DNA of 32,000 bases from Saccharothrix sp. (GCF_031180885.1 NZ_JAPSLK010000007.1:114455-146454); one strand, 5' to 3'. Positions 1 through 31,332 are shown, numbered from the stretch's first letter. Notes: generated by a model from the letters alone, not told the origin. Numbers and translations: made by a program.

Positions 1-848
1 GGCCCGTGGCCTTCGGCGATCGCGCGCTTGCCCAGCGCCGTGATGAGCGCCGGCCACTCGGTGTTGACGCCCAGTTCCCGGCTCTCGTCGAGCAGGTGGT
101 CCATCGCGTCGACGTGCGTGTCGATGGTGGAGTCCTCGGCGGGCCAGTCACCCGCGTCGATCTGCGCGGCGTAGGCCTCGATGAAGCCCAGCGTCATCTC
201 GGCGAGCGCCTTCGCCAGCGGCAGGTACTCGGTGGCCTTCACGCCCGCGGTGCCCAGCAGCGCCACACCGTGCAGGAAGCTGTTCTCGACGCCCCACATC
301 ATGGTCAGCAGCGAGACGTCGTGCAGCGCGGCGAGACCGTGGTCCTCGCCCAGGTACGTGGTCCCCGCGGGGGCCACCGCCTTGAGGGTCTCCACGTGCT
401 CGTCGAACGCCGACTTCGGACCGCAGTGCAGCAGGATCGCCTCGTCGGTGGCGATCCCCGGCGGGATGGCCATGATCGCGCTGTCGATGTACGCGCCGAC
501 GTTGTGCTCCGCCGCCCACTTCGCCATGCCCCGCGACTGCGACGAGCTGGCGCTGGTCATGTTGACCAGGGTGCGGCCCTCGAACGAACCCACCACCGGG
601 TCCAGCAGGTCGTGGACCGCGTCGTAGTCCGAGACGCAGATGACGACCAGCGGGCTCGCCTCGACGGCGTCCTTGACCGACGGCGCCAGGACCGCGCCCT
701 TGGCGACGAGTTCGTCGGCCTTGCTCGCCGACCGGTTCCACACGGTGGTCGGGTGCCCGTTCCCGAGGAACGCGGCGGCCAATGCCTGACCCATCAGGCC
801 CAGGCCGATCACGGTGACCGGCGCCTGGGCGGCATTGGGGTTGGACAT
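1..848 (-). CDS. Imine reductase (IRED)-like NAD(P)H oxidoreductase with a beta-hydroxyacid / 6-phosphogluconate dehydrogenase fold. The C-terminus lies beyond the window edge.
   Basis: Absent from the supplied ORF track because no stop codon falls inside the window. Minus-strand ATG at 848-846, with AGGAG (plus-strand ctcct, 857-861) 8 nt upstream. My translation: MSNPNAAQAPVTVIGLGLMGQALAAAFLGNGHPTTVWNRSASKADELVAKGAVLAPSVKDAVEASPLVVICVSDYDAVHDLL...YLGEDHGLAALHDVSLLTMMWGVENSFLHGVALLGTAGV... It has a GxGxxG Rossmann motif, and the xLxDxxLLxxMW region resembles Asp-type IREDs. GC3 bias is strong in this frame. The listed ORFs 6..953(+) and 148..981(-) are Arg/Gly/Pro-rich shadows. Confidence 0.7.
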   Translation of the reverse strand, partial: MSNPNAAQAPVTVIGLGLMGQALAAAFLGNGHPTTVWNRSASKADELVAKGAVLAPSVKDAVEASPLVVICVSDYDAVHDLLDPVVGSFEGRTLVNMTSASSSQSRGMAKWAAEHNVGAYIDSAIMAIPPGIATDEAILLHCGPKSAFDEHVETLKAVAPAGTTYLGEDHGLAALHDVSLLTMMWGVENSFLHGVALLGTAGVKATEYLPLAKALAEMTLGFIEAYAAQIDAGDWPAEDSTIDTHVDAMDHLLDESRELGVNTEWPALITALGKRAIAEGHG

Positions 849-976
849 CACATTCACTCCTGTTCAGCCCGCGCCGGTTCACCCGGCGCGGCGTGTTGTC
901 GGCGTCCTGCAACGGTTTCACCGCCCTCGCGACCGGACCAGCGGCGAACGTGACCTTCTTCGAACGTTTCCTGCCG

Positions 977-982
977 TACACT
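977..982 (+). promoter_or_regulatory. Possible -10 hexamer (TACACT, TAnnnT class) 7 nt upstream of the ATG at 990, which would imply a leaderless or near-leaderless transcript for the regulator gene
   Basis: TACACT at 977-982 and ATG at 990. There is no Shine-Dalgarno sequence between them and no convincing -35 element. This arrangement is common in actinomycetes but is a weak signal on its own. Confidence 0.2.
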
Positions 983-989
983 CGCGACC

Positions 990-2087
990 ATGGGGCCGGG
1001 TGTCGTCGCGATCGCTGTGCTCAACGGAACCGACATGCAGGTCTGCGAGGTGTACGAGACCGCCATCGCGAACGCGGTCTTCGGTGATCCGCAACCGGAT
1101 CTGGCCGATCCCTGGTACGAGGTGAAGCTCTGCACGGGATCGCGGGACGAGCCCACGCCGCACGGTTTCTCCTTGCGCAGCAAGCACGGGCTCGACGACC
1201 TGGTGGTCGCCGACACCGTCATAGTCCCGTCGGTCCCGGACGACGTGCTCCAGGGCCGCGCTCCGCTGGCGCCGGAGTTCGTGGCGGCGCTGCGCGACGC
1301 GGCCGCGGCGGGCGCGCGCATGGTGTCGTTGTGCAGCGGGGCGTTCGCCCTCGCCGAGGCGGGCCTGCTCGACGGCCGCCGGGCCACCACGCACTGGATG
1401 CACACCGCCGACCTCGCCAAGCGCTACCCGCGGGTCCAGGTCGAGGACGCGGTGCTCTACGTCGACGACGGCGACGTCCTCACCAGCGCGGGCATGACCG
1501 CGGGCCTGGACCTGTGCCTGCACCTGGTGCGCCGCGACCTGGGCGCCCACGTCGCCGGCCAGCTGGCCCGCCGGATGGTCGTGGCGGGGCACCGCCCCGG
1601 CGGGCAGGCGCAGTTCGTCGACCTGTCCGTGCCCGAGGACGACGACGACACCCTGGCCATGGCGATGGACTGGGCCTCGGGCAACCTCGACCAGCCGCTC
1701 ACCGTGGACGCGATGGCCAAGCGGGCCGGCATGAGCCCCCGCACGTTCTTCCGCAAGTTCCAGGCGACCACCGGGCTCACCCCGTTGAAGTGGCTGCTCA
1801 ACCAGCGCCTGTCCCGCGCGCAGAGCCTGCTGGAGACCACCGACCTGCCGATCGAGCGGATCAGCGAGGCCAGCGGGATGGGCACCGCGACCAACCTGCG
1901 CCGGCACTTCACCGCGCAGGTCGGCGTGACGCCCACCGACTACCGGCACGCGCTCGGCTTCCGCGCCCGCCGGGCGGCCGAGCGGGGCGCCGACCCGGTC
2001 ACGCGGTGGTCGGCGCCCGCGCCCCGTCAGGGCTTCGGCGGCACCGGGAAAGAGCTCTCCGCCGGCCAAGGGCCGTTGCCCGCGTAG
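990..2087 (+). CDS. GlxA-family transcriptional regulator (N-terminal DJ-1/PfpI class I amidotransferase-like domain plus C-terminal AraC-type HTH)
   Basis: 365-aa ORF. The N-terminal half carries the nucleophile-elbow Cys (MVSLCSGAFALAEAGLLDGRRATTHW). The C-terminal half has the AraC double HTH (LTVDAMAKRAGMSPRTFFRKFQATTGLTPLKWLLNQRLSRAQSLLETTDLPIERISEASGMGTATNLRRHFTAQVGVTPTDYR). It is divergent from the IRED-like gene, and its low-complexity tail overlaps the convergent 2027..2461 gene by 61 nt. Confidence 0.85.
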   Translation: MGPGVVAIAVLNGTDMQVCEVYETAIANAVFGDPQPDLADPWYEVKLCTGSRDEPTPHGFSLRSKHGLDDLVVADTVIVPSVPDDVLQGRAPLAPEFVAALRDAAAAGARMVSLCSGAFALAEAGLLDGRRATTHWMHTADLAKRYPRVQVEDAVLYVDDGDVLTSAGMTAGLDLCLHLVRRDLGAHVAGQLARRMVVAGHRPGGQAQFVDLSVPEDDDDTLAMAMDWASGNLDQPLTVDAMAKRAGMSPRTFFRKFQATTGLTPLKWLLNQRLSRAQSLLETTDLPIERISEASGMGTATNLRRHFTAQVGVTPTDYRHALGFRARRAAERGADPVTRWSAPAPRQGFGGTGKELSAGQGPLPA

Positions 2088-2461
2088 GCGTTGTCGATCA
2101 CGTAGCGCCAGCCGCCGTCCTCGCCGCGCTGGAGCACGTCGACCGCCAGGCCGCTGAGCTTCTCCGGCTTGCCGTCCCGGGTGGTGTCCATCTCCCACTC
2201 GACCACCACCATGGCGGTGTCGCCGTTGACCATCTGCTGGAGCACGGTCGCCTCGACGGTCGCGTTGCGGGTCTTGATGAAGTGCTCGACGTAGTCCCGG
2301 CGCGCCTGGCCCTGGACCGGCTTGCCGGGTTCCCACATGCCCACGGCGTCGTCGACGTACAGGGCGTTGACCGCGTCCACGTCGCCCGCGTTGAACGCCA
2401 CGTTGAACATTTCCTGGTGCGTGTCGATGTCGGTGGCCAGGTGGTCTTTTTTGGAGGCCAT
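2027..2461 (-). CDS. NTF2-like (SnoaL / DUF4440-type) small protein
   Basis: 144-aa ORF: MASKKDHLATDIDTHQEMFNVAFNAGDVDAVNALYVDDAVGMWEPGKPVQGQARRDYVEHFIK...VVVEWEMDTT...GGWRYVIDNAY. The size and the N-terminal pattern (F..AFNAGD.DA...LY.DDAV) are typical of NTF2-fold SnoaL-like proteins. ATG at 2461 is preceded by GGGAGTGGG. It lies directly downstream of the PKS genes on the same strand. Confidence 0.7.
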   Translation of the reverse strand: MASKKDHLATDIDTHQEMFNVAFNAGDVDAVNALYVDDAVGMWEPGKPVQGQARRDYVEHFIKTRNATVEATVLQQMVNGDTAMVVVEWEMDTTRDGKPEKLSGLAVDVLQRGEDGGWRYVIDNAYAGNGPWPAESSFPVPPKP

Positions 2462-2564
2462 GGTCAGCCCACTCCCGTTCTCGGTTCTCGTTCGTCGGAT
2501 CGTGCTCGGCGTGACGTTCGGGCAACGCCGAGATGGACGCTACCGGCGGTCGAACGCATTCCGA

Positions 2565-2638
2565 CCGCAGTCGGGTAATCGCCGCCGCAGTCGGGTAATC
2601 GCCGCCGCGACGGCGTGGCGACCGGCGGCGATTACCCG
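2565..2638. repeat. Intergenic repeat cluster: two perfect tandem 20-bp copies plus an inverted 16-bp copy
   Basis: CCGCAGTCGGGTAATCGCCG occurs at 2565-2584 and again at 2585-2604. CGGGTAATCGCCGCCG (2592-2607) is the perfect reverse complement of CGGCGGCGATTACCCG (2623-2638), with a 15-nt spacer. The cluster lies between the PKS stop/terminator and the start of the NTF2-like gene. Confidence 0.9.
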
Positions 2639-2654
2639 GTTGACACCAATTGGA

Positions 2655-2682
2655 GATCCGGCCGGCGCTTTCCGGCCGGATC
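2655..2682 (-). terminator. GC-rich hairpin 5 nt after the PKS stop codon (putative intrinsic terminator, no U-tract)
   Basis: GATCCGGCCGG (2655-2665), loop CGCTTT (2666-2671), CCGGCCGGATC (2672-2682). This is a perfect 11-bp stem. The PKS stop codon is at 2688-2690. Confidence 0.5.
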
Positions 2683-2687
2683 AGCGG

Positions 2688-9098
<6,411 letters not shown>

Positions 9099-9127
9099 GG
9101 TTTCCCCCAGGCTCTCGTCGGGACGGC

Positions 9128-12100
9128 TCAGCTGTCGGCTCGGCCGAGTTGGTTGTCGATGAACGCCAGCAGCTCCGCGGTGGACGCCTCCTCGATGGCC
9201 GCGTCCGGCGTGCCGGCGGTGATCCCGGAGCCGTGCCAGGTCTCCATCCAGCGGGAGAGGATCGTCTGGAGGCGGACGGTGATCGTGTCCCGGCTCCGGT
9301 CGTCCTCCCCGATGCCGGACAGGACGTCCTCCAGCTTGTCCAGCTCCGCCAGCACCGGTGACGCGGTCGGCGCGGCGCTCTCCGGGGCGATCTCCCGGAG
9401 CAGGAACGCGGTCAGGGCGGCCGGGGTCGGGTAGTCGAACACCAGCGTGGCGGCCAGTTTCACGCCCACCGCCGCGCCGAGCCGGTTGCGCAGCTCGACC
9501 GCGGTCAGCGAGTCGAAGCCCAGCTCCTGGAAGGGCCGCTCGGGGTCGACGGCGTCCGCGTCGCGGAGACCGAGCACCGCCGCCACCTGGCCCGCGACCA
9601 GCCGCAGGACGGTCGCCTCGTGCTGGTCGGCGGGCAGCTCGGCGAGCCGTTGCGCCAGGGGCAGGCCGTCGTCTTCGGTGGGCCGCGTGGCGGGCGGGAC
9701 CAGACCGCGCAGCAGCGGGTTGACCTCGCCGCCGGCGCGCGCGGCGTCCAGGTCGAGCGGGGTCGCGGTCAGCGCGGCGTCGGGCAGGCCGAGCGCGGCG
9801 TCGAGCACGGCCAGGCCGTGGGCCACGCCGACCTGGGCGAACCCGTCGCGGCGCAACCGGGCCAGGGCGGCGTCGGTCGCGCCGGCGCCGATGCCGCCGT
9901 CGACCTCCCACAGGCCCCAGCCCAGCGCGGTCGCGGGCAGGCCGCGGGACGCCCGGTGCCGGGCCAGTCCGTCCAGGAACGCGTTGGCCGCGGCGTAGTT
10001 GGCCTGCCCCGGACCACCGGTGACGCCCGGCAGCGCGGAGAACAGGACGAACGCCGACAGCGCCACGCCCTCGGTCAGCTCGTGCAGGTGCCACGCGCCG
10101 TCGACCTTGGCCCGCAGCACGCGCTCCAGCTGCGCGGGCTCCAGCTCGGTCACCGGGTTGCCGTCGAGCACGCCGGCCGCGTGCACCACGGCGGTCAGCG
10201 GGTGCTCGGCCGGGACGCCGGCCAGCAGCGCGGCCACCGCGTCGCGGTCCGCGACGTCGCACGCGGCGATCTCCACCGACGCGCCGTGCTCGGCCAGCTC
10301 CCGCCGCAGCGGCTCGGCGCGCTCGGCGTCCGCACCGGACCGGTTCACCAGCAGCAGGCGCCGCACGCCGTGCGCGGTCACGAGGTGGCGGGCGACCTCC
10401 GCGCCCAACGCCCCGGTGCCCCCGGTGATCAGGACCGTGCCCGAGGTGGGCCAGCCGCCCGGCCCGGCGTCCGGGACGGAGTCGCCGACCCGGCCGAGCC
10501 GGGGCGCCAAGACCTCTCCGCCGCGCACGGCGGCGGCGGGCTCGTCGGTGTCGAGCAGCGCGGCGAGCAGCGCCAGGTCGACGGTGTCGGTGTCGACCAG
10601 GACGATCCGGCCCGGGTTCTCCAGTTGCGCCGAGCGGACCAGACCCCACAGCGCGGCGGCGGCCGGGTCGCACACGTCGGTCTCGGCGGCGACCACGGCG
10701 CCCCTGGTGAGCACCACCAGCCGGGTCTCGGCCAACCGCTGGTCGGCCAGCCACGCGCGCAGTGACGCCAGCACGCCCGAGGTGGCCGTGCGGGTTCGCG
10801 CCGCGGCGTCGTCGCCGGGCTCGACGTCGGCGTTCAGCAGCAGCACCTCGGCGGCCTCGGTGACGGCGGTGACGTCGTCGAACACCGGCAGGTCGGTCCG
10901 CGTGCCGCCGATCGCGGCCCAGCGGGCCGGCGGCGTGCCCGGGGTCAGCGGCAGCGCCGTCCACTCCAGCCGGTGCAGCGACCGGGTGGGGCCGGGGCCG
11001 CCGACCACGTCGGCCGGGGTCCGGTCGCGCCAGGTGACCGAGTCCACGGTGGCGACCAGGCCGCCGTCCGCGTCGGTCAGCAGCACCGACGCGGTGTTCT
11101 CGCCGGTCGGCGTGACCAGCGCCCGCACCGCCGAGACGCCGGTGGCGTGCAGCCGCAGCCCGCGCCACCCCTCGGCCAGGTGGCCGCGGGTGACGCCCGC
11201 GAGCGCCAGGGCCTCGCGCAGCAGGGTCGGGTGCAGGCCGAACCCGGCCGCGTCCCGGGTGTGCCCGTCGCCGAGCCGCAGGTCGACCGCGGTCCCGTCG
11301 CCACGTCGTGCCGGGGTCGTGGTCTCGGCGGTCAGCACGCCGGTGGCCACCCGGACCCACTCGCCCTCGGCGACCTCGGCGTGCACGGACACCGCACGCC
11401 GACCGCTCTCGTCCGCCTCGCCGACGCGGGCCTGCACGGACGTGGCACCCGACTCCGGCACGGCCGGCTCGGCCGCCACCGCCAGCTCGGCCACGACCGG
11501 GCAGCCGACCTCGCGGCCGGCCCAGGCGGCCGCCTCGGCCAGCGCCGACGCGGGCAGCACCACGGTGTCGGACACGGTGTGCTCGGCCAGCCACGGGTGC
11601 GCGGCCTGCGACGCCAGGCCGGTGAACAACGCCTCGTCGGTGTCGGCCAACCGCACCGTCCCGCCCAGCACCGGGTGGTCACCCGGCTTCGGGCCGAACG
11701 CCACCGGCACGCCCGGCGACTCCAGCCAGTACCGCTCGCGCTGGAACGGGTACGGGGGCAGGTCGACGACCTCCGCCCCGGTGCCGGCGAAGAACGCCGC
11801 CCAGTCCACCGGCACGCCCCTGGTGTGCAGCAGGCCCAGCGCACCGACCAGGGTGCGCGGCTCGTCCTGGCCGTTGCGCATGGCCGGGATCGGCACCGCG
11901 CGCTCCACGCAGGCCGCGGCCATCGCCGACAGCACCCCGTCCGGGCCCAGCTCCAGCATCGTGGCGACGCCCTGCGCCTCCAGCTCGCGGACGCCGTCGA
12001 CGAACCGGACGGGCAGGCGCACGTGGTCCACCCAGTAGTCCGGGGTGGTCCACCGGTCGCCGGACTCGACCTCGCCGGTCACCGTCGACACCACCCTGAT

Positions 12101-15100
12101 CTTCGGCCGGTGGAAGGTCAGCCCTTCCGCGACCGCCCGGAACTCCTCCAGCATCGGCTCCATCCGAGGCGAGTGCGACGCGACGCTGACGGCCAGGCGC
12201 CTGGTCCGGCGCCCGCGTTCCTTCCAGAGCGCGGCGACGGCCTCCGCCGCGTCGGTGTCGCCGGAGACGACGACCGACCGCGGGCCGTTGATGGTGCCGA
12301 TGACCACCCGGCCGGACGCCGGCAGCGTCTCCAGGACCTCCTGCTCGGTCGCCTCGATCGCGATCATCGCGCCGCCGTCGGGCAGCCCGTTCATCAGCTG
12401 GCCGCGCGCGGTGACCAGCGTGGCCGCGTCCGGCAGGGACAGCACCCCGGCGACGTGCGCGGCGATCAGCTCGCCGGTCGAGTGGCCGATGAGGAAGTCC
12501 GGGTGCACGCCCCACGCGGCGAGCTGGCGGAACAGCGCGACCCCCACCGCGAACAGCCCGGCCAGCAGGTTGTCGATCCGGTCCAGGTCCTCGCCGGTGT
12601 CGATGACCTCCCGCAGCGGTCGCGGCAGGCCCTTGTCCAGTTCGTCGGCCACCTCGTGGAAGGCGTCCCGGAACACCGGGAACGCTTCGCACAGCTGCTT
12701 GGCCATGCCCACGCGCTGCGCGCCGCCACCGGTGAACATGAACGCGGTCAGGCCCTCGGTGCGCACGCCGCGCACGGCTTCGGGGCCGTCGGCGGCCAGC
12801 TCGGACAGGCCGCGCAGCAGCTCGTCGCGGTCGGCGGCCACGACCACGCCGCGGTGCGCGAGCGCGGACCTCGTGGTGGCCAGGGACAGGGCGACGTCGA
12901 GCCGGTCCACATCGCCCTCGGCCAGCAGCTCGCCGATCCGGGCCGCGTGGGCGCGCAGGCCCGCGACCGAGCTGCCGGAGAGCAGCCACGGCACCACCGG
13001 AAGCTCAGCGGTGACGGGGGTGTCGGTCTCGGCCGGGGCCTCGGGCGCCTCCTCGATGATCACGTGCGCGTTGGTGCCGCTGATGCCGAACGACGACACC
13101 GCGGCCCGCCGGGGCTCGCTCCCCCGGTCCCACGGTTGTTCCCCGGTCAGCAGCGCCAGCCCGCCGGACGACCAGTCCACGTGCGGCGACGGCGTCTCCG
13201 CGTGCAGGGTGCGGGGCAGCGTCCGGTGCCGGATCGCCTCGACCATCTTGATGACGCCGCCGACCCCGGCCGCCGCCTGGGAGTGGCCGATGTTGGACTT
13301 CAGCGAGCCCAGCCACAGCGGCCGATCGGCGTCGTGCGCGGCGCCGTAGGTGGCCAGCAGCGCCTGCGCCTCGATCGGGTCGCCCAACGGGGTGCCGGTG
13401 CCGTGCGCCTCGACGACGTCCACGTCGGCCGGGCTCAGGCCCGCGTTCGCCAGCGCCTGCCGGATCACGCGCTCCTGCGACGGCCCGTTGGGCGCGGTGA
13501 GCCCGTTGGACGCGCCGTCCTGGTTGATCGCGGAGCCGCGCAGCACCGCCAGCACCCGGTGCCCGTTGCGCCGGGCGTCGGACAGCCGTTCCAGCAGCAG
13601 CAGGCCGACGCCCTCGCTCCACACCGTGCCGTCGGCGTCGGCGGAGAACGACTTGCAGCGGCCGGACGGCGACAGCCCGCGCTGCCTGCTGAACTCGATG
13701 AACGAGCCGGGGCCGGCCATCACGGTCACCCCGCCCGCCAGCACCAGGTCCGACTCGCCCGACCGCAGGGCCTGCCCGGCCAGGTGCAGGGCCACCAGCG
13801 AGGACGAGCACGCCGTGTCGACGGTGACCGCGGGCCCCTCCAGCCCGTAGGTGTAGGCCAGGCGCCCGGAGATCACGCTGGAGGTGTTGCCCACCAGCAG
13901 GAACCCCTCGAACTCCGGCGGCACGGACTTCAGGTGCGCGGCGTAGTCGTCGTACATCGCCCCGACGAACACGCCGGTGTTGCTGCCGCGCAGGGTGGCC
14001 GGGTCGATCGCGGCGCTCTCGAAGGTGTGCCACGCCGTCTCCAGCAGCAGCCGCTGCTGCGGGTCGGTCGCGGTGGCCTCGCGCGGGGAGATGCCGAAGA
14101 AGTCCCGGTCGAACAGGTCGGCGTCGTGCAGGAAGCCGCCCTCCCTGATGTAGGAGGTGCCGATGGCCTCCGGGTCGGGGTCGTAGAGCCCGTCGAGGTC
14201 CCAGCCCCGGTTGGTCGGGAACCCGCTGATGGCGTCGCCGCCTTCGGCGACCAGCCGCCACAGGTCCTCCGGCGAGCGGACACCGCCCGGGTAGCGGCAG
14301 GCCATGCCGATGATCGCGATCGGCTCGTCGTCGGCGACGGTGGCCTTGACCGCGGCGCCGGCGGCGGCCTCGCCACCCAGCCTGCCCAGCAGGTACGCGG
14401 CCAGCGCCCGCGGGCTCGGGTGGTCGAACACCACCGTGGACGGCAGTGTCAGCCCCGTCGTGGCGCCGAGCTGGTTGCGCAGCTCGACCGAGGTCAGCGA
14501 GTCGAAGCCCTGGTCCTTGAACGCCCGGGCGGGCTCCACGGCCGCGCCGGAGGTGTGGCCCAGCGCGAGTGCCGCCGTGTTGCGCACCAGCTCCAGCACG
14601 GCGGGCTCGCGCTCGGCCTCGGGCAGCGCGCTGATCCGCGCGGCCCAGCCGTCCGGGACCGCCCGGCGTTCGGCCCGCCGGGGCCGGACCAGGCCGTGCC
14701 ACAGCCTCGGGCGCTCGCCGCCGGCCGCCAGGTCCAGCGCGGCGGGCACGAGCAGCGGGTGGCCCGAGCCGAGCGCCTCGTCGAACATCGCCAGGCCCTG
14801 CGCCGGGGTCAGCGGGGTCACGCCGGCGCGGGACCAGCGCCGCACGTCCGCCTCGGACAGGGTCGCGCCCATGCCCTCGGCTTCCGCGCCCCACAGGCCC
14901 CACGCCAGCGAGGTCGCGGCCAGTCCTTGGGCGGCGCGGTGGGCGGCCAGCGCGTCGAGGTAGGTGTTCGCCGCGGCGTAGTTGGCCTGCCCGGCCGTGC
15001 CCAGGATGCCGGAGACCGACGAGAACAGCACGAACGCGGCGAGGTCGTCGTCGGCGGTCAGGGCGTGCAGGTGCCACGCGCCGTCGACCTTGGGCCGCAG

Positions 15101-18100
15101 CACGGTGGCGACCTGGTCGGCGGTCAGCGCCGTGATGGTCGCGTCGGCCAGGACGCCCGCGGTGTGCACGGCCGCGGTCAACGGGTGCTCGGCGGGGACC
15201 AGCGCCAGGGCGGCGGCGAGCGCGTCCCGGTCGGCGACGTCGGCCGCGGCGACCAGGACCTGCGCGCCCGCCGCCGTCAGGTCGTCGACCAGCGCGGCGC
15301 AGCCGGGGCTGTCCGCCCCGCGCCGGCTGACCAGCAGCAGGTGCCGCACGCCGTGCGCGGCGACCAGGTGCCGGGCCACCACGGCGCCCAGGCCGCCGGT
15401 GCCGCCGGTGATCACGACGGTGCCGTCGGGGTCGATCGCCCGACCGGTCGGCTCGGGCGCGGACCGGGCCAGGCGGGCGGCGTGCAGCCGGCCCGAGCGG
15501 ATGGCGACCTGCGGTTCCCCGCTCGCGGCGGCCGCGAGGACCAGGGTGTCGTCCGAGCCGTCCGTGTCGACCAGCACCAGGCGACCGGGGTGCTCGGCCT
15601 GCGCCACCCGGACCAGGCCCCACACGGGCGCGTGCGCCAGGTCGTCGACCCGGTCGCCGGGCAGGGCGGCGACCGCGCCGCTGGTGACCAGGACCAGGGT
15701 GGCGTCGGCGAACCGCTGGTCGGTCAGCCACTCCCGCACCAGCGCGAGGGCCGAAGCGGTGGCCTCGTGCGCGTCGGCGGGTGAGTCGCCGCCGCCGGTC
15801 AGCGTGGCCACCACGACGTCGGCGCGTTCGGTGTCGGCCAGGGTGGCGGCCAGGTCGGCCCGGGTCAGCGCCCCGGTGCCGGGGGTCGCGATCGGGGGCC
15901 AGGTGACGGCGAACAGCGAGCTGCCCTGGCCCGCCTTGCCGATCACGGCGCGGGGGACGCCGCGCAGGGTCAGCGACTCGACGGTGAGCACCGGCGCGCC
16001 GGTGGTGTCGGTCAGCTCCAGCCGGACCGCGTCCCGCCCGGTCGGCGACACTCGCACCCGCGCGGCCGTCGCTCCCCTGGTGTGCAGGGTGACGCCCTCC
16101 CAGGCGAACGGCAGCCGGATCTCGTCGCGGTCGCGTGCCGCGTCGGGCAGCAGCGGGTGCAGGGCCGCGTCGAACAGCGCGGGGTGCAGTCCGAACCGGT
16201 CGTCGTGGTCGGCGTCCGGCAGCGCGATCTCGGCCAGGACGTCCGAACCCGCCCGCCACACCGACCGCAGCCCCTGGAACACCGGGCCGTAGTCGTAGCC
16301 GAGCCCGGCCAGCGCCGGGTAGGCGTCGTCGACCGGCTCGGCCACCGCGCCCGCCGGCGGCCACGGGGTCACCGCCGCGGCGGGGCGTTCCCCGGCGGGG
16401 CCCAGCAGGCCCGCGGCGTGCTCGGTCCACGCGGCGGCCGGGTCGTCGGCGGCCGGCCTGGAGTGGACGGTGAACCGGCGCGCGCCGGAGTCGTCCGCGG
16501 CGGCCACCCTGACCTGCACCCGCACCGACTCCCCGGCGGGCAGCGGCAGCGGGGCCTGGAGCGTCAGCTCCGCCACCCGCTCGGCGCCCGTGTGCTCGCC
16601 GGCGGCGAACGCCAGTTCCAGGAACGCGGTGGCGGGCAGGAGCGCCACGCCTTCGATGACGTGGTCGGCCAGCCACGGGTGCGTCCTGGTCGACAGCACG
16701 CCGGTCAGCACCGCGCTCCCGTCGTCGGCCACGTCGACCACGCCGCCCAGCAGCGGGTGCCCGGCCGGTTCGACGCCGAGGCCGCGCGCGTCGGGACGGG
16801 AGCTTGCGGTCAGCCAGAAGTGCTCGCGCTGGAAGGCGTACGTCGGCAGGTCGGCGGGGACGGCGTCCGGGAAGAACGGCCTGAGGTCGACCTCGGCGCC
16901 GGCCGCGTGCGCGGCCGCCAAGCCGGCCACGAAGGTGTCGACCTCCGGCCGGTCCGCGCGGGCCAGCGGCACGGCGGTCGCGGTCGCGCCGGCCGCCTCC
17001 ACGGTCCCCCGCGCCTGTGCGGTCAGGACCGCGTCCGGGCCGATCTCCACGAGCACCGTCGCGCCCAGGCCGGTCGCGGTCACCACGGCGTCGTGGAACC
17101 GGACCGCCGAGCGGATCTGGTCGACCCAGTAGTCGGCGGTGGTGATCCGCTCCGGGGCCACGACCGCGCCGGTGACGGTGGAGACGACCGGGATGACCGG
17201 CGCGTGGAAGGTCAGCCCTGCGGCGACCGCGCGGAACTCGTCGAGGATGTCGTCCATGTGCGGCGAGTGGAACGCGTGGCTGACGCGCAGCGCCCGCACC
17301 CGGTGGCCCTTGTCCTTCCACTGCTGTGCCACGCGGTGCGCGACCTCCGCGTCACCCGCGATCACCACCGCCCGCGGGCCGTTCACGGCGGCGATGTCGA
17401 CCAGCCCGGCGTGCTCGGCGATCGAGGCGGCGACGGCGTCGGGCTCGGCCTCGATCGCGACCATCGCGCCGTCCGACCGCGCGGCCTGCATCAGCCTGCC
17501 GCGGGCGGCGACCAGCGTCGCGGCGTCCTCGGCGGAGAGCACCCCGGCCACGTGCGCGGCGGCCAGTTCGCCGATCGAGTGCCCGGCCACCAGGTCCGGC
17601 GTCACGCCGTGGTGCGCGGCCAGGCGGTGCAGCGCCACCTCGACGGCGAACAGCGCGGGCTGGGTGTACCGGGTCTGGTCGAGGTCCTGCCCGCTCTCGA
17701 CGACCTCGCGCAGCGGTCGGTCCAGGTGCGGGTCGAGGTGCGCGGCGATCTCGTCGAACGCCTCGGCGAACACCGGGAACTCGGCGTGCAGCGCCATGCC
17801 CATGCCGACCCGCTGCGCGCCCTGCCCGGTGAACATCAGCAGGGTCTTGCCGGTCGACGCCGTCCCGCGCACCACGGTCGGGGAGGCGTCGCCGGCCGCG
17901 AGCGCGGCCAGCCCGTCGAGCCGGTCCTGCGCGGTCGAGCCGAGCACCACCGCGCGGTGGGCGAACGGGGTGCGGGTGGTCGCCAGGGCGAGGCCGATGT
18001 CGGCCGGGTGCGCGTCCGCGCGGGCGAGCACGAACTCGCGCAGCCGCGCGGCCTGGGCGCGCAGGCCGTCGCCGGTCGGCGCGGACAGCACCCACGGCGC

Positions 18101-21100
18101 CCGCGCCGGGTCACCGCCGCCGGACCGCTCCGGCTGCGGCTCCACCTCGATGACGGCGTGGGCGTTGGTGCCGCTGATCCCGAACGACGACACGGCCGCG
18201 CGGCGCGGCCGCCCGGTCTCCGGCCACGCGCGGTTCTCGGTGACCAGCGAGACCGCGCCCGAGGCCCAGTCCACGTGCGGCGTCGGCTCGTCCACGTGCA
18301 GGGTGGCCGGGACGACCCCGTGGCGCATCGCCTGCACCAGCTTGATCACGCCACCGACCCCGGCCGCGGCCTGGGCGTGGCCGATGTTGGACTTGAGCGA
18401 CCCGAGCAGCACCGGCTCCCGGTCGCCCCGGTCGGCGCCGTAGGTGGACAGCAGCGCCGTCGCCTCGATCGGGTCGCCCAGGCTGGTGCCGGTGCCGTGC
18501 GCCTCGACCACGTCGACGTCGGCGCCGGTGAGCCCGGCGTCGGCGAGGGCCTGGCGGATCACCCGCCGCTGCGCCAGGCCGCTCGGCGCGGTCAGGCCGT
18601 TGGACGCGCCGTCGGAGTTGACCGCCGAGCCCCGCACCACGGCCAGCACCGGGTGCCCGTTGCGGCGGGCGTCGGACAGCCGCTCGACCACGAGCAGGCC
18701 CACGCCCTCGGCCCACGCGGTGCCGTCGGCGGCGGCGGCGAAGGACTTGCAGCGGGCGTCGGGGGCGAGGCCCTGCTGGCGGGAGAACTCCAGGAACATG
18801 CCCGGCGTCGACATCACCGCCACGCCGCCCGCGATCGCCAGCGACGTCTCGCCCCGGCGCAGCGACTGGACGGCCAGGTGCAGCGCCACCAGGGACGACG
18901 AGCACGCGGTGTCGACGGTGAGGGCGGGGCCGAGCAGGCCCAGCTGGTAGGCGATGCGGCCGGACATGACGCTGGCCGTGCCGCCGGTGAGCAGGTGCCC
19001 CTCGACGTTCGCCGGCGCGTCGTGCATCCGCGGTCCGTAGTCGAACGTCGTGGCGCCGATGAAGACACCGGTGCGGGAGCCGCGCAGGTCGCGGGGGACG
19101 AGACCGGCCCGTTCCAGCGCCTCCCACGTGGTCTCCAGCAGCAGCCGCTGCTGCGGGTCCATCGCCTGCGCCTCGCGCGGGGAGATCCCGAAGAAGCCGG
19201 CGTCGAAGCGGCCCGCGTCGTGCAGGAAACCGCCCTCGCGCACCGAACTGCGGCCGGACGCGCCGGGATCGGGGTCGAACAGGTCCTCGGGCCAGCCGCG
19301 GTCGGCGGGGAACCCGGAGATGGCGTCGCCGTTGCCCGCGACCAGCGCCCACAGGTCCTCCGGCGAGGCGACCCCGCCGGGGTAGCGGCACGCCATCCCG
19401 ATGATGGCGATGGGCTCGTCGTCCGCCACCGCGGCGACCTCGTCGACGTCGTCGGCACCGCCGCCGAGCCGGGCGTCGAGGTGCGCGGCCAGCGCGGCCG
19501 GCGTGGGGTGGTCGTAGAGGGTGCTCGACGGCAGGTCCAGCCCGGTGGCCGCGGCGAGGGCGTCACCGAGTTCCACGGTCATCAGCGAGGTGAAGCCCAG
19601 CTCGCGGAACGGCAGGTCGACCTCGACCGCCTTGCCGGGTGCCAGGCCGAGGACGGCGGCGACGTGCGCGTTCACCAGGTCGGCGGCGCGGGCGGGTCGG
19701 CCGGTGGTGACCGGGCGCGGCGCGGGTGCGGGGGTGGCGCGCGGCGCGGGTGCGGGCTCGGCCGGGCCTTCGGTGACCCAGAAGCGCTCGCGCTGGAAGG
19801 CGTAGGTCGGCAGGTCGACGCGGCGCGCGCCGGTGCCCGCGAACACCTGGCTCCACTCCAGCTCGACGCCGGACACGACCAGCCGGGCCACCGCCGTCAT
19901 CGCGGTGCGGGGCTCCGGCTTGTCCTTGCGCAGCACCGATTCCGCGCGCACCGCGGACCGGTCGACGACGCTTTCGGCGACCATGGCCGAGCACACGCCG
20001 TCCGGGCCGAACTCGACGACCGTGCGCACCCCCGCCGCCTCCACGGCACGCGCGGCGTCGGCGAAGCGGACGGTCGCGCGGACCTGCTCCACCCAGTACT
20101 CCGGGGACGCCAGGAGTTCGGGGGCGGCGACCTGTCCGGTCACCGTGGAGACCACCCTGATCCGCGGCGGGTGGAACTCCAGACCGGACACGACGGCGCG
20201 GAAGTCGTCGAGCATGGGCTCCATGCGGTGGGAGTGGAACGCGTGGCTCACCGCGAGCCGCTTGGTCTTGTGCCCGGCCTCCTTCAGCCGCGCGGCGGCG
20301 TCGAGCACGGCGTCCTCGTCACCGGAGAGCACCACCGCTTCGGGGCCGTTGACGGCGGCGATGGCCACGGTGTCGGACAAGTACTCGGCGACCTGTGCCT
20401 CCGTCGCGCCGACGGCCACCATGGCGCCGCCCTCGGGCAGCGCCTGCATCAGGCGTCCCCGTGCGGCGACGAGCGCGACGGCGTCGGGCAGGGACAGCAC
20501 GCCCGCGACGTGCGCGGCGGCGACCTCGCCGATGGAGTGGCCCAGCACGAAGTCCGGTCGCAGGCCCCACGACTCGAACAGCCGGAACAACGCCACCTCG
20601 ACCGCGAACAGCGCGGGCTGGGTGTACCCGGTCTGGTCGAGGTCTTCCCCGCTCTCGACCACCTCGCGCAAGGGCCGGTCCAGGAGCGGGTCGAGCAGCG
20701 CCACGACCTGGTCGAAAGACCGCGCGTAGACCGGGAACTCGGCGTGCAGCGCCATGCCCATGCCGACCCGCTGCGCGCCCTGGCCGGTGAACACGGCCGC
20801 GGTCGCGCCCGCCGACGCGACGCCGGTGACGAGCCCGGCGGCCGGGGCGCCCGCGGCCAGCGCGCGCAGGCCGGCGACCAGTTCGGCGCGGTCCGCGGCG
20901 ACGACGGCGGCGCGGTGGGGGAACCGGGTGCGCGTGGTCAGCGCGGACCAGCCCACGGACGCGATGTCGGCGTCACCCGCCTCGACCGCGTCCGAGAGCC
21001 GCTCGGCCTGCGCGCGCAGCGCTTCCGGGCTCCGGCCGGTGACGACCACCGGCAGCGGTGCCGTGACGTCGGGCTGTCGGGCGCCGGTGGGCTCGGCGCG

Positions 21101-22426
21101 CCGCGCGGTCGGCGCGGGCTGCGCGGTCGGCGCTTCCGCGACGACGACGTGGCAGTTGGTGCCGCCCATGCCGAAGGAGCTGACGCCCGCGACGAGCCGG
21201 CGGTCCGGGTGCGGCCACGGCGAGCGGCTGGTGACCACGGAGAGGTTCAGCTCGTCGAACGGGATGGCCGGGTTCGGCGTCTCGAAGTTGAGGCTCGCGG
21301 GCAGTTCGCGGTGGGCGACCGCCAGCACGGTCTTCACCAGGCCGGTGATGCCGGCGGCGGCCTCCAGGTGGCCGATGTTGGTCTTCACCGAGCCGACGAC
21401 CAGGGGGTCGCCGGACCGCTTGAGCGTGCCGATCGACGCGCCCAGCGCCGCGGCCTCGATCGGGTCGCCCACCGGGGTGCCGGTCCCGTGCAGCTCGACG
21501 TACTGCACGTCGTCCGGCGACACGCCCGCCCGGCGGTGCGCCGTCCGCACCACCTGCTCCTGCGCGAACGCGCTGGGCACCGTGAGCCCGGAGGTCGCGC
21601 CGTCGTTGTTGACCGCGCTGCCCAGCAGCACGCCGTGCACCCGGTCACCGTCGGCGAGGGCGGCCCGCAGCGGCTTGAGCACGACCACGGCGGCGCCCTC
21701 GCCGCGCGCGTAGCCGTTGGCGCGGGCGTCGAAGGTGTGGCAGCGGCCGTCGGGGGACAGCCCGCCGAACCGCTCGGCGCCCAGCACGGTCTCGGCGAGG
21801 ATGTTGAGGTTCACGCCCGCGGCCAGCGCCAGCGCGGAGTCGCCCGAGCGCAGCGACTCGCACGCCAGGTGCACCGCGACCAGCGACGACGACTGGCTGG
21901 TGTCGACGGTGAGGCTGGCGCCGCGCAGGCCCAGGGCGTAGGAGACGCGGTTGGCGATGACGCCGCGGTGCACGCCCGCGTTGGTGTGCTGGGTGATCGC
22001 GGCCGAGCCCTGCCGGTAGACCAGGCCCGCGTAGTCCTCGCGCGCGGTGCCGACGAAGACCGAGGTCGGGCTGCCCTCCAGGTCGGCGGCGACGATCCCG
22101 GCGTCCTCCAGCGCGGACCAGGCCAGCTCCAGCAGCAGGCGCTGCTGCGGGTCCATCACCCGCGCCTCGCGCGGCGAGATGCCGAAGAAGGCGGCGTCGA
22201 AGTCGGCTATCGAGTCCAGGAAACCGCCTCGGCGCACCGGATCGCCCGGGTCGGCGGAGATCGGTTCCCAGCGGTGCGCGGGCATGTCGGTCAGCGCCTC
22301 GCGCCCGGACCGCAGCAGGTCCCAGAACGCGGCCACGTCCGGCGCGCCGGGCAGCAGGCAGGACATCCCGATGACCGCGATCGCGTCCTCGTGCTGGGTG
22401 CCGTGGAAATGCTGACTGCTCGACAT
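9128..22426 (-). CDS. Modular type I PKS with a loading module and two extension modules: KSQ-AT-ACP / KS-AT-DH-KR-ACP / KS-AT-DH-KR-ACP-dock (about 4432 aa)
   Basis: The ORF is 9128..22504. The preferred start is ATG 22426 ([23 protein letters not shown]...), preceded by GAAGGG; the 26 codons upstream are basic and atypical. KS active sites are DTSQSSS (Gln codon 21893-21895), DTACSSS (Cys 18902-18904) and DTACSSS (Cys 13808-13810). AT active-site Ser codons are 20534-20536, 17576-17578 and 12479-12481. ACP Ser codons are 19586-19588, 14498-14500 and 9509-9511. DH catalytic His codons are 16661-16663 and 11579-11581. KR TGGTG motifs lie at ~15381-15422 and ~10401-10427. The C-terminal ~80 aa look like a docking domain. 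Confidence 0.95.
9440..14330 (-). other. Extension module 2: KS-AT(atypical, VASH)-DH(HxxxD)-KR(LDG)-ACP
   Basis: KS DTACSSS. The AT has [25 protein letters not shown] and VASH (12173-12184). The DH has HPVLGG... and [10 protein letters not shown]. The KR has [18 protein letters not shown] and [21 protein letters not shown]. Confidence 0.8.
14420..19415 (-). other. Extension module 1: KS-AT(HAFH)-DH-KR-ACP
   Basis: [13 protein letters not shown]...DTACSSS; GHSIGE with HAFH (17267-17278); DH HPLLGG... and [45 protein letters not shown]. No ER motif is present. Confidence 0.85.
19510..22395 (-). other. Loading module KSQ-AT-ACP (decarboxylative priming; the AT motifs are malonyl-type)
   Basis: The KS has [13 protein letters not shown], with Gln in place of the active-site Cys, and retains [12 protein letters not shown] and [10 protein letters not shown]. 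The AT has GHSIGE and HAFH (20234-20245). The ACP has [13 protein letters not shown]. Confidence 0.85.
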
Positions 22427-22667
22427 GAGGTGTCTGCCCTTCGCTTGCCGCCGGAAACCGTGATGGGTTTTCCCAGACCGAAACCACTTCGACCCTAGGC
22501 ACAACGCCCCGGCAGTTGATCCACCGGCGGTCTCCGACCGGTAAAACCGCGCGATCGACCACCCGGTTACCGGATTTCTTCCGATTTGAGCGCGGTAAAA
22601 ATCCGGGAAGGATCACCGAATCGCCGCCCGCCGCGCGCCATTACCGGGGCTAGACCGGAGGTAGACG
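22427..22667. promoter_or_regulatory. Divergent promoter/operator region between the PKS operon (minus) and the aminotransferase gene (plus)
   Basis: 241-bp non-coding gap, locally AT-enriched. It contains the inverted repeat CCGGATTT (22571-22578) / AAATCCGG (22599-22606), the palindrome CCGGTTACCGG (22563-22573), GGTAAAA twice (22540-22546 and 22594-22600), and ATTACCGGGG (22640-22649). I could not place a confident -35/-10 pair. Confidence 0.55.
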
Positions 22668-24278
22668 GTGATTCACCCGGCGTTGGCTACGGTCGGCCCC
22701 GCCAGCACCCGACGTGGAATGGGGAAGAAGATGAACCCAGTGGTCGACAAGCCCGAACTGGCCGAGCCGTACATGTTCGCCTGGCTGGCCGCCAACGGGC
22801 TCGGGGTCGAGTACACCAGGTCGAAGAAGGACTCCCTGTTCTACCGCGACGCCGACGGCGCCGAGGTCGAGGTGCTCGACCTCGTCGGCGGCTACGGGTC
22901 GACCATCCACGGGCACAACAACCCGGAGCTCGTCGAGTACGCGAAATCGCTCCTGGACGCCGGCACCCCGATCCACGCCCAGTTCTCCCGGCACCCCTAC
23001 GCGAACGACCTCGCCTGGACGCTGAACACCATCGTGCGCCGCGAGCTGGGCACCGACGAGCACTACCAGGTGATCTTCGCCAACAGCGGCGCCGAGGCCA
23101 ACGAGGTCGCCATCAAGCACGCCGAGATGGACCGCGTGCTCAAGATCGGCGAGGCGCTCGCCGAGGTGGAGGCCCACATCGAGGCCGCCATCGCAGCGGC
23201 GGCGGCCGGCGCCACGGTGGACGCGTCACCCCTGCCGGGCTCGACCCTCGACGAGGTCGTCGCCGCCCTGCGCGCGGCCAACACCGAGCGCGCCGCCACG
23301 CCGCCGGTCTACCTCGCCCCCAACGGTTCCTTCCACGGCAAGCTCGCGGGCAGCATCCAGCTCACCCACAACGTCAGCTACCGCACGCCGTTCAGCGCGA
23401 TGGCCGCGCAGTGCCGGTTCCTGCCGCTGGAGCCCGACGCCGTCGCCGACGCGATCGCCGCGGAGAGCCGGACCCTGCTCGACCTCGCCGTGGACGGCGA
23501 CGTCATCCGGGTGGTCGAGCGCCCGCTGCCGGTGATCAGCGCGTTCGTCCTGGAGCCCATCCAGGGCGAGGCGGGCATCCGGATCCTGGACGCCGACGCC
23601 CTCGCCCGCGTGCGCGAAGTCCTCGACGCCGCCGGCATCCGCGTCATCGTGGACGAGGTGCAGAGCGGCATGGGCCGCTCGGGCGCGTTCTTCGCCGCGT
23701 CGCACCTGGGGCTGCGCGGCGACTACATCACCCTGGCCAAGAGCCTGGGCGGCGGCATCGCCAAGGCGGCGGTCACGCTGATCCGGTCGTCGATCTACCG
23801 CACCGACTTCGAGCTGCTGCACACCTCCACCTACGCCAAGGACAGCTTCTCCACCCTCATCGCCGCGCGCGCCGTGGACATGCTGGAGGCCGACGACGGC
23901 GCGGCGTACCGGAAGGCGGCCGAGCGGGGCGACAAGCTGCTCGCCATGCTGAACTCGCTGCGCGAGGAGTTCGGCGACGTCGTCAAGGACGTGCGCGGCA
24001 AGGGTTTGATGACCGGTCTGGAGTTCCACGACCTGTCCGACTCGGAGTCCGACATCCTCGCCGAGCAGGCCCGGGGCGGCCTGATCGGGTACATGTTCTC
24101 GGGCTACCTGCTGCGCGAGCACAACATGCGGGTCTTCCCGACCGCCAGCGCCACCAGCACCCTGCGCTTCGAACCGTCCATCCACATCACCGACGAGGAG
24201 ATCGCCCGCGCCGAGGTGGGTCTGCGCGCGCTCATCGGCCACATCCGGGCCGAGGACGGCAAGGCCCTGCTCGGCTGA
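22668..24278 (+). CDS. Class III (omega-type) PLP-dependent aminotransferase
   Basis: 536-aa ORF. GTG 22668 lies 6 nt after GGAGG (22657-22661); alternative ATG starts are at 22719 and 22731. Motifs: VIFANSGAEANEVAIKHA, FHGK, EPIQGEAGI, VDEVQSGMGRSG, and TLAKSLGGG with the putative Schiff-base Lys codon at 23739-23741. Confidence 0.9.
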   Translation: MIHPALATVGPASTRRGMGKKMNPVVDKPELAEPYMFAWLAANGLGVEYTRSKKDSLFYRDADGAEVEVLDLVGGYGSTIHGHNNPELVEYAKSLLDAGTPIHAQFSRHPYANDLAWTLNTIVRRELGTDEHYQVIFANSGAEANEVAIKHAEMDRVLKIGEALAEVEAHIEAAIAAAAAGATVDASPLPGSTLDEVVAALRAANTERAATPPVYLAPNGSFHGKLAGSIQLTHNVSYRTPFSAMAAQCRFLPLEPDAVADAIAAESRTLLDLAVDGDVIRVVERPLPVISAFVLEPIQGEAGIRILDADALARVREVLDAAGIRVIVDEVQSGMGRSGAFFAASHLGLRGDYITLAKSLGGGIAKAAVTLIRSSIYRTDFELLHTSTYAKDSFSTLIAARAVDMLEADDGAAYRKAAERGDKLLAMLNSLREEFGDVVKDVRGKGLMTGLEFHDLSDSESDILAEQARGGLIGYMFSGYLLREHNMRVFPTASATSTLRFEPSIHITDEEIARAEVGLRALIGHIRAEDGKALLG

Positions 24279-24375: not shown

Positions 24376-24807
24376 TCAGTTGAGCTTCTCGCCGTAGACG
24401 CGCTCGACCTTGAGCGAGATGAGGACGCGCCGCTCGGCCACCATGACCGCCCGGTACTCGTCCCAGTCCGGGTGCTCGCCCGCGCCGAAGCGGTAGTAGT
24501 CGACTAACGCCTCGACCTCGGGCCCGTTGGGGTCGGTCCCCGGGCCGGTCAGGGTGACGGTGCCCTCGGCGGTCGCCCACGACCACCCGTCGGCGCTGGT
24601 GACCTCCAGCGCCGCGCGCGGGTCCCGGCGCAGGTTCGTGGTCTTGGCGTAGCCTTCGTTCGTCGACACCAAGATGACACCGGCGTCCCGGTCGTAGAAG
24701 TGATACACGGGGGACAGATGCGGGAAGCCGTTCCGCTTGAGTGTCGCGAGAACACCGATATTGCTTTTCGCGATCAGTTCGTGCGCGTTGAATGACGAAG
24801 CAGTCAT
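24376..24807 (-). CDS. PPOX-class (pyridoxamine 5'-phosphate oxidase-like split-barrel) oxidoreductase, probably F420- or flavin-dependent
   Basis: The ORF-track entry 24376..25026 begins with a 73-codon Arg/Pro/Gly-rich extension that overlaps the ROK gene's 3' end. The likely start is ATG 24807: MTASSFNAHELIAKSNIGVLATLKRNGFPHLSPVYHFYDRDAGVILVSTNEGYAKTTNLRRDPRAALEV...GTVTLTG (143 aa). This pattern is typical of the small actinobacterial PPOX/F420 family. The RBS is weak. Confidence 0.65.
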   Translation of the reverse strand: MTASSFNAHELIAKSNIGVLATLKRNGFPHLSPVYHFYDRDAGVILVSTNEGYAKTTNLRRDPRAALEVTSADGWSWATAEGTVTLTGPGTDPNGPEVEALVDYYRFGAGEHPDWDEYRAVMVAERRVLISLKVERVYGEKLN

Positions 24808-26036: not shown

Positions 26037-26061
26037 GGCACCTACTTGCTGCGACCGAACC

Positions 26062-26091: not shown

Positions 26092-26120
26092 GCTGATCGA
26101 CGCAGCAAGCGGGAGGGACC

Positions 26121-29730: not shown

Positions 29731-31332
<1,602 letters not shown>

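Follow-up and report, generated by a model that had tools for sequence, protein, structure and literature searches.

A compact, reductively terminated polyketide synthase cluster of Saccharothrix and its probable small piperidine or pyridine alkaloid product

Release of a polyketide chain by a terminal thioester reductase (TR) domain, followed by transamination of the freed aldehyde by an enzyme of the CpkG type, was shown biochemically for coelimycin and has been proposed as universal for actinobacterial polyketide alkaloids; the same study mined 22 further clusters, nine of them with unknown skeletons (Awodi et al. 2016, PMC5365063). For argimycin, the polyketide synthase (PKS) and ArpN alone suffice for the piperideine ring, which closes by spontaneous cyclisation, and in the last two modules of that PKS an odd ketoreductase (KR4) and two dead dehydratases (DH4 and DH5) leave a keto group and a hydroxyl (PMC5300972). 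Genetic evidence identified ArpDHII, the imine reductase (IRED) of the pathway, as the enzyme that reduces the piperideine nigrifactin (PMC5820336). Shorter chains follow the same course in Streptomyces FORM5, in which a pentaketide amine passes through a hydroxypiperideine to a piperidine or pyridine; 2-pentadienyl-piperideines, -piperidines and -pyridines occur in this strain, with tetraketide-derived 2-propylpyridine in traces (PMC4077424). Here we describe a locus in a 32,000-nucleotide stretch of a Saccharothrix sp. genome (NZ_JAPSLK010000007.1:114455-146454, hereafter the window) that has the hallmarks of this class: a modular PKS ending in a TR domain with intact motifs, and an omega-transaminase within 35 kb of it. 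The locus is, in our judgement, likely to be a polyketide-alkaloid cluster of the thioester reduction and aldehyde transamination class, with a proposed piperideine/piperidine route, and its product is probably a small piperidine or pyridine alkaloid.

Genes in the window, whose G+C content of 68–78% is that of high-GC actinobacterial DNA, were called by frame analysis of third-position G+C (GC3) combined with Pfam annotation. The core consists of two collinear PKS genes on the minus strand. PKS1 (9128-22426, 4432 aa), whose start ATG at 22426 is kept in orthologues, encodes a loading module (KSQ-AT-ACP; ketosynthase variant, acyltransferase, acyl carrier protein), a first extension module (KS-AT-DH-KR-ACP) and a second one of the same order in which both DH and KR are aberrant, and it ends in a docking tail. 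PKS2 (2688-9098, 2136 aa), which begins with a docking segment, carries extension module 3 and the terminal reductase (R) domain, as docking-KS-AT-DH-KR-ACP-R, with HAFH in the AT and LDD in the KR. Both frames, of 13.3 and 6.4 kb, are uninterrupted, with a GC3 of 0.95–0.97; the domains of PKS1 were located by running Pfam over overlapping slices, and active sites by motif scan and domain alignments. A first-pass annotation of the window had named, besides the PKS, genes for an aminotransferase, an IRED, an NTF2-like protein, a PPOX-class protein and a GlxA-type regulator. All of these were recovered in place, as was the interval of about 1.8 kb between the PKS2 stop at 2688 and the IRED start at 848-863.

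PKS2 ends, as the first-pass annotation had read it, in a reductase directly after the ACP, an NAD_binding_4 domain (2691-3881, minus strand; residues 1778-2014; Pfam, 2.5e-65), and has no thioesterase. The closest solved structure, 8v1x (7.2e-145), shows the CpkC TR of coelimycin biosynthesis as determined by crystallography (bioRxiv 10.1101/2024.10.29.620908), and the next is MxaA, the myxalamid reductase (5.5e-75). Reductases of nonribosomal peptide synthetases (NRPSs) and carboxylic acid reductases match far more weakly, and a reading of the domain as an NRPS-type four-electron reductase is rejected, CpkC TR being far closer than any NRPS R domain. Aligned with CpkC TR and MxaA, the domain conserves TGATGFLG, the Thr of VST and the Tyr and Lys of GYLQSKW, the pair on which the first-pass annotation had made a working reductase depend; two Arg residues (in VRGAD and RRLR) are likewise conserved in the region that binds the 2′-phosphate of NADPH in CpkC TR, the residue roles being those assigned in that enzyme (bioRxiv 10.1101/2024.10.29.620908). 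TR domains of PKSs stop at the aldehyde, which is then trapped by their cognate transaminases (PMC5365063; bioRxiv 10.1101/2024.10.29.620908).

Divergent from PKS1, across a common promoter region of 304 bp (22427-22730), lies the gene of a class III (omega) aminotransferase (22731-24278, plus strand, 515 aa; Aminotran_3, 3.8e-62), an arrangement already recognised in the first pass. Its start is most likely ATG 22731, from which translation yields the sequence of a deposited Saccharothrix sp. entry (100% identity); GTG 22668 is less likely. The enzyme matches CrmG (PDB 5dds) over its full length (1.6e-147), including a family-specific insertion of ~50 residues, and because of this insertion it looks divergent against the Pfam model. 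It is not a sequence outlier: the family gives more than 3500 matches, and the top 120 all come from actinomycetes, at 52% identity or more. An identity as a primary-metabolism ArgD or GabT, the alternative raised in the first pass, is rejected, since putrescine aminotransferase, ArgD and GabT match only residues ~190-490 (1e-38 to 1e-20). The motifs TLAKSLGGG, which we take to hold the lysine that binds pyridoxal phosphate, and DEVQSGMGRSG are both preserved in the alignment with CrmG. A modular PKS adjoins the aminotransferase gene in 5/5 relatives examined. We call the enzyme CpkG-type by virtue of its match to CrmG; its gene begins 304 bp from that of PKS1, well inside 35 kb of the TR-terminated PKS.

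The states of the active sites outline what chain would be delivered to the reductase. In the loading KS, the active-site Cys is replaced by Gln (DTSQSSS, PKS1 residue 178; codon 21893-21895, minus strand). An alignment of the four AT domains finds the malonyl signature HAFH in AT-L, AT1 and AT3, and a non-malonyl signature in AT2 (11792-12751, minus strand), which has VASH and GHSTG, and RIDNLLAG where QTxYTQPA is expected. VASH domains are associated with methyl-, ethyl- or methoxymalonyl extenders (PMC7327777). No genes for crotonyl-CoA carboxylase/reductase or methoxymalonate supply were seen at the locus, and together with VASH this makes a methyl or ethyl branch the most likely outcome of AT2. 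DH1 carries all four DH motifs. DH2 (10847-11686, minus strand), by contrast, is degenerate: a 41-residue deletion takes out GYxYGPxF, HxxxG has become HxxxD and the catalytic Asp is Arg (HPTLLREAL), and Pfam detects the domain by its N-terminal half alone (PKS_DH_N), so that DH2 is predicted to be inactive. KR2 (9872-10456, minus strand), in the domain alignment, has LDG for LDD, lacks the Trp of A-type domains and has Ala at the position of the catalytic Ser, and is probably inactive or impaired. This state is common to the window, Lentzea alba and Saccharothrix S26. In Saccharothrix Mg75 the Ser is kept (FSS) and LDS stands in place of LDG; the state of KR2 may therefore vary among otherwise orthologous clusters. 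DH3 keeps its catalytic His and Asp in the window copy and has lost two structural motifs there: GFALGPxF, which replaces GYxYGPxF in 6/6 orthologues (the catalytic His motif was seen in 5/6), and VVVEW, which replaces LPFxW and was checked in the window copy only. The five orthologues in which all DH3 motifs were found, those at loci L005, L006, L008, L009 and L011, described below, retain the catalytic His and Asp as well.

A scan of the genome collection with the IRED gave eight loci, seven of which share parts of the cluster: those of Saccharothrix S26, Saccharothrix Mg75, Lentzea alba, a Streptosporangium sp., Herbidospora cretacea, Nonomuraea longicatena and a metagenome-assembled genome (MAG) of Umezawaea. 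The eighth, from Nonomuraea roseola, is not syntenic. In the seven, the IRED orthologues are 76–93% identical to that of the window. Six further genomes (L005-L009, L011) show synteny for PKS2, the SnoaL/NTF2-like gene, the regulator gene and the IRED gene, and the Umezawaea MAG (L010) has the SnoaL and IRED DNA in common, with a partly similar pattern of genes downstream; in S26 and N. longicatena the aminotransferase and a PKS1-sized neighbour lie on the same contigs as the IRED. Over the length shared, the cluster DNA of the window (1-24866) is 87–91% identical to that of Pseudonocardiales and Streptosporangiales members (L005-L009, L011, L016 and L017, from Saccharothrix, Lentzea, Streptosporangium, Herbidospora and Nonomuraea), and each genome flanks it with unrelated genes. 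The dS values of PKS2, the IRED and the aminotransferase are 0.16–0.25, with a dN/dS of 0.18–0.38. Values of dS this low between members of different orders indicate that the cluster was recently transferred as a whole by horizontal transfer; with ~90% DNA identity across two actinomycete orders, it is a clear example of such an event.

Two variations on the block were observed in passing. In the Streptosporangiales copies (L005, L007, L009), the PKS2 stop and the SnoaL-like gene are separated by ~1 kb of additional DNA, which encodes an NmrA-like NAD(P)-binding protein in L005 (7201-8217) and contains stop codons in the frame examined in the equivalent stretch of L007; the window and the other Pseudonocardiales copies are without it. 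A more distant version occurs in S. viridochromogenes DSM 40736 (GG657757.1 4886172-4907800), with an aminotransferase 66% identical to that of the window, a PNPOx-fold gene adjacent to it and a SARP (Streptomyces antibiotic regulatory protein) gene nearby; its PKS, split into several gene calls in a draft assembly, is collinear with PKS1 at least as far as KS2, which takes in the loading module and module 1.

To the left, the cluster extends beyond the window. Four loci (L005-L008) are long enough to show what lies there: the IRED is followed by two amine oxidases, a P450 and a large SARP-type regulator, after which conservation stops, and on the strength of these orthologous loci the same genes are expected to continue the cluster to the left here. 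In L008 the oxidases, two tandem paralogous flavoenzymes with 82–84% DNA identity to each other, occupy 11387-13006 and 13353-15080, the P450 15223-16446, and a BTAD-AAA SARP regulator follows at 16406-18829 (minus strand). At the other flank, the conserved block closes with the aminotransferase or the PNPOx-fold gene, and the orthologous loci hold no further PKS genes on either side. The interval 1-24278 proposed in the first pass therefore covers the core of the cluster but stops short on the left; the full cluster measures roughly 33 kb, of which the window holds most. In Saccharothrix S26 the full cluster is contained in contig JAJUWT010000021.1, within about 54.8–99.3 kb.

We propose the following route. 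The KSQ domain would decarboxylate malonyl-ACP to give an acetyl starter, which module 1, with malonyl as extender and KR and DH intact, would turn into a crotonyl chain. Module 2 would add the branched extender (methyl- or ethylmalonyl) and, given the dead DH2 and the aberrant KR2, leave its beta-carbon as a ketone, or at most as a hydroxyl. Module 3 would add malonyl, reduce the ketone and perhaps dehydrate. The CpkC-like R domain, with NADPH, would then free the C8 chain (plus branch) as an aldehyde, expected to be 4-alkyl-5-oxo (or 5-hydroxy) with a 6,7-double bond and either a 3-hydroxyl or a 2,3-double bond. The CrmG/CpkG-like aminotransferase would turn C1 into a primary amine, and attack of this amine on the C5 carbonyl would close a six-membered imine, a 2-(prop-1-enyl)-3-alkyl-1-piperideine with or without a 4-hydroxyl. 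The first-pass proposal of a nitrogen-containing polyketide, made by reductive release and transamination and offering a cyclic imine to the IRED, withstands these tests at the level of sequence.

Several points weigh against this route. KR2 retains its Tyr, Lys and Asn and its NADPH motif, and the Ser-to-Ala exchange is not found in every orthologue, so C5 may be a hydroxyl that requires a separate oxidation. DH3, with catalytic His and Asp in place, could give a 2E double bond, which would block direct cyclisation unless isomerised or reduced. Should KR2 or DH3 be active, cyclisation would come at a different point of the sequence of steps and an oxidation or an isomerisation/reduction step would be needed, for which the F420-type or the SnoaL-like protein would be a candidate. 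AT2 lacks two Gln residues that we take to be conserved (GQG has become GGG, and YTQP NLLA), and its substrate, and even its activity, is uncertain. Finally, TR-terminated PKS clusters have given nitrogen-free diols, the venediols and lavendiol, on activation or heterologous expression.

This last point leads to the strongest of the alternatives, that the end product here is free of nitrogen: the aldehyde from the R domain would go on to an alcohol or diol, leaving the aminotransferase and IRED inactive, occupied with other substrates or confined to a minor branch. The venediols and lavendiol come from clusters related to the class; the TR of the venediol PKS is 63% identical to that of CpkC (bioRxiv 10.1101/2024.10.29.620908), lavendiol came from a cryptic S. 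lavendulae cluster expressed in a heterologous host, and a PKS cluster of Saccharothrix espanaensis has been described as lavendiol-cluster-like. An S. lavendulae aminotransferase (BBA84069), which may belong to the lavendiol cluster, is 61% identical to that of the window. The diols of these studies may, however, be shunt products, and the halt of PKS TRs at a transaminase-trapped aldehyde, noted above, speaks against further reduction. Moreover, the aminotransferase, IRED and amine oxidases are intact and have been inherited with the PKS across genera, the first two under purifying selection. The S. lavendulae-type locus, the nearest that we traced to a known non-nitrogenous cluster, is also built differently: its aminotransferase lies between PKS genes of far greater size, and no IRED is visible within 10 kb. 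The match to such a cluster that the first pass had considered was not found. We regard a nitrogen-free end product as improbable, and return to the piperideine route.

The IRED gene (1-848, minus strand; its last ~15 codons lie beyond the window edge) encodes a Rossmann NAD(P) domain (NAD_binding_2, 2.7e-22) and an IRED-type C-terminal domain (RedAm-like_C, 1.4e-36), which places it in the IRED family. Its best matches among solved structures are the biocatalytic IREDs 8j44 and 7osn (1e-105) and 3zgy, the R-selective IRED of S. kanamyceticus (1.6e-93). The Asp of its LHDVSLL motif sits where, presumably, the catalytic Asp of R-type IREDs is found. In the proposed route this enzyme would reduce the piperideine to a piperidine, and a cyclic imine of the piperideine type is the kind of substrate on which IREDs were defined. 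The enzyme might instead be a reductive aminase that uses an external amine to aminate the aldehyde or the C5 ketone, as the name of its C-terminal Pfam family would suggest, and nearly all IREDs, among them ArpDHII, reportedly catalyse reductive amination as a promiscuous activity (PMC7244260). Against such a role stand a dedicated CrmG/CpkG-type transaminase beside the PKS, the reduction of cyclic imines by the closest characterised relatives (3zgy), and the reduction of a piperideine by ArpDHII, the sole IRED whose role in a pathway of this class is genetically proven (PMC5820336). Of the two roles entertained in the first pass, cyclic-imine reduction is thus supported, and reductive amination is unnecessary given the transaminase; we rate it a little below even the nitrogen-free product. 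Least probable of all is that the locus is a decaying or silent remnant without a product, as the deleted DH motif, the Ser-to-Ala exchange in the KR and the odd AT residues of module 2 might suggest, since the PKS frames are intact, orthologues of equal length exist in at least six other genomes, a dN/dS below 0.4 argues that the genes are maintained, and the same "dead" domains set the keto group for ring closure in the functional argimycin PKS (PMC5300972).

Beyond the piperidine, the proposed route would pass to tailoring of the ring by the two amine oxidases, the P450, the SnoaL-like and the F420-type proteins, for example by dehydrogenation toward a pyridine or by hydroxylation. The nearest relatives of the oxidases, NicA2 (nicotine oxidoreductase), MAO-N and 6-hydroxynicotine oxidase, all have cyclic amines as substrates. 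A twin-arginine signal, LPRRSVLKAG (LPRRSVLKAGVAGG), is present in both oxidases, for which reason the late oxidation steps are probably extracellular; the coelimycin pathway also uses secreted flavoenzymes for late oxidations. A bolder and distinctly more tentative proposal, which we would not put forward as the likely outcome, is that this compact, horizontally mobile tetraketide cluster, possibly the shortest of its class, makes a branched, coniine-like 2-propenyl-3-alkyl-piperidine or -pyridine. A classical R-type IRED and the secreted NicA2-like pair would thereby gain a natural substrate, imine reduction within the cell being paired with re-oxidation of the amine outside it. Such re-oxidation, if true, would amount to activation, aromatisation or stereo-editing of the product outside the cell, in several rare actinomycete genera.

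Expression would be controlled by the SARP together with a GlxA-type regulator with DJ-1/PfpI and AraC-type helix-turn-helix domains (990-2087, plus strand; HTH_18 4.7e-21, DJ-1_PfpI 2e-13). In L005-L009 and L011, the stretch conserved at DNA level includes a gene that agrees with that of this regulator in size, strand and position. The exact heptamer CCGGTAA/TTACCGG occurs three times in the 32-kb window, where 0.68 copies are expected, and 3/3 copies fall in the promoter region between PKS1 and the aminotransferase, at 22538-22544 (plus), 22567-22573 (minus) and 22641-22647 (minus). One box is unchanged in five orthologous promoters, among them those of S26, N. longicatena, A. iranica and S. 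viridochromogenes, and the boxes are candidate operators for the SARP or the GlxA-type regulator. A fourth near-copy, GCGGTAA, stands at ~22592.

Two small proteins complete the set. The SnoaL/NTF2-like protein (2027-2461, minus strand; DUF4440 2e-12, SnoaL_2 9e-12) is a candidate cyclase or isomerase; a search of the PDB found no close solved structure for it. Most orthologous loci have a gene of the same size and placement within the stretch conserved at DNA level, and exact copies occur on metagenome contigs of 2–4 kb. The PNPOx-fold gene (24376-24807, minus strand; PNPOx_N 3.6e-12), just outside 1-24278, has the F420-binding protein Rv1155 as its best PDB match (2.5e-37), and its product, an accessory member of the cluster, is probably an F420-dependent reductase. 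In Saccharothrix S26 and S. viridochromogenes the gene next to the aminotransferase encodes an orthologue of 143 aa; no such neighbour was found in N. longicatena and A. iranica. In Herbidospora cretacea a PNPOx/F420-type gene lies at the SARP end instead (L007 19671-20139). As its placement differs among loci, it is a movable accessory gene.

To the right of the cluster, the window holds a ROK-family regulator (24882-26108, minus strand), a polar amino-acid ABC transporter binding protein (26121-27032, plus strand), what appear to be two back-to-back ABC permeases in different frames (~27040-27676 and 27680-28449, plus strand) and a two-domain ABC ATPase (29731-31332, minus strand). The ROK and ABC-transporter genes (24.9–31.3 kb) were considered as cluster members and rejected, since relatives do not keep them next to the cluster. 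No confident gene call was obtained for 28.45–29.7 kb, and a search of the window for tRNA genes found none. Two Rfam matches to ASpks, a mycobacterial small RNA (sRNA) antisense to pks, score above the gathering threshold (68 bits each) at 7977-8051 and 13298-13372 (both plus strand). They were rejected because both lie antisense to conserved KS-coding DNA, that of modules 3 and 2 respectively, and most likely reflect conservation of the KS coding sequence and not a real sRNA.

In the literature covered, which leaves most subscription journals outside, there is no report of this cluster, of its product or of a characterised tetraketide TR/transaminase/IRED cluster, and none of polyketide alkaloids from Saccharothrix, Lentzea, Nonomuraea, Streptosporangium or Herbidospora; a survey of Herbidospora PKSs and the akazaoxime paper say nothing on this cluster. 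If expressed, the cluster would probably yield a new small piperidine or pyridine alkaloid. The physiological roles of IREDs are, to our knowledge, mostly unknown, and the proposed piperideine reduction, if true, would be a second natural-substrate assignment for a family heavily used in biocatalysis. The locus also suggests in what natural setting a classical IRED and NicA2-like oxidases are likely to act. A three-module TR-PKS with its cognate transaminase could, furthermore, become a part for engineered amine production on PKS-TR/transaminase platforms.

The closest characterised system is that of argimycin P (arp, Streptomyces argillaceus), with its relative for streptazone E (stz). Since the arp set is similar by published description, the first-pass view that the gene set here is unlike any characterised cluster was overstated. 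Both systems have a KSQ-primed modular PKS ending in a TR; apparent counterparts by function, judged from the descriptions, are present here for the aminotransferase ArpN, the IRED ArpDHII, the amine-oxidase-like flavoprotein ArpO/StzK, the NTF2-like ArpHI/HII, the small flavin-reductase-like ArpK and the SARP ArpRI, and in ArpP as here the last two modules show defects of KR and DH, which in the penultimate module point to a C5 carbonyl for piperideine closure. The hexamodular, all-malonate PKS and C12 chain typical of arp and stz are replaced here by a loading module and three extension modules, against five extension modules in arp, for a predicted chain of C8 plus a branch; the branched extender is suggested by the VASH AT, where arp uses malonate only. 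One NTF2-like gene stands against two in arp, and neither a second NTF2-like gene nor an acyl-CoA-dehydrogenase-like ArpDHI was found at the locus. The present cluster has, in turn, the two Tat-signal NicA2-like oxidases, a P450 and the GlxA-type regulator.

Coelimycin (cpk, Streptomyces coelicolor) shares with the locus the type of R domain, close to CpkC TR, and the proposed release of an aldehyde followed by omega-transamination. It differs in a hexamodular PKS that uses malonate only, in the lack of an IRED, in a bis-epoxide-derived adduct as product and in its tailoring enzymes (CpkD/E/H/I, ScF). CrmG, from the caerulomycin pathway, is the closest solved aminotransferase and aminates an aldehyde intermediate, the amine being later oxidised to an oxime; the hybrid PKS/NRPS bipyridine pathway in which it acts otherwise shares nothing with the locus. 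The streptopyridines and 2-pentadienylpiperidines of Streptomyces FORM5, plant coniine and the koreenceines of Pseudomonas follow a like logic, from a reduced short polyketide aldehyde to an amine, a 2-alkyl-piperideine and then a piperidine, by imine reduction, or a pyridine, by oxidation. The bacterial compounds among them are unbranched, mostly pentaketides and without a link to this gene set, and coniine and the koreenceines arise from type III or type II-like systems. The venediol and lavendiol clusters are, like this one, type I PKS clusters, with an acetate-generating first module in the venediol PKS; their reported products are nitrogen-free diols. Judged from its genes, the locus belongs to the known TR/transaminase class, with a logic like that of arp, stz and cpk and no new biosynthetic principle, and it is the most compact version of that logic met in this comparison.

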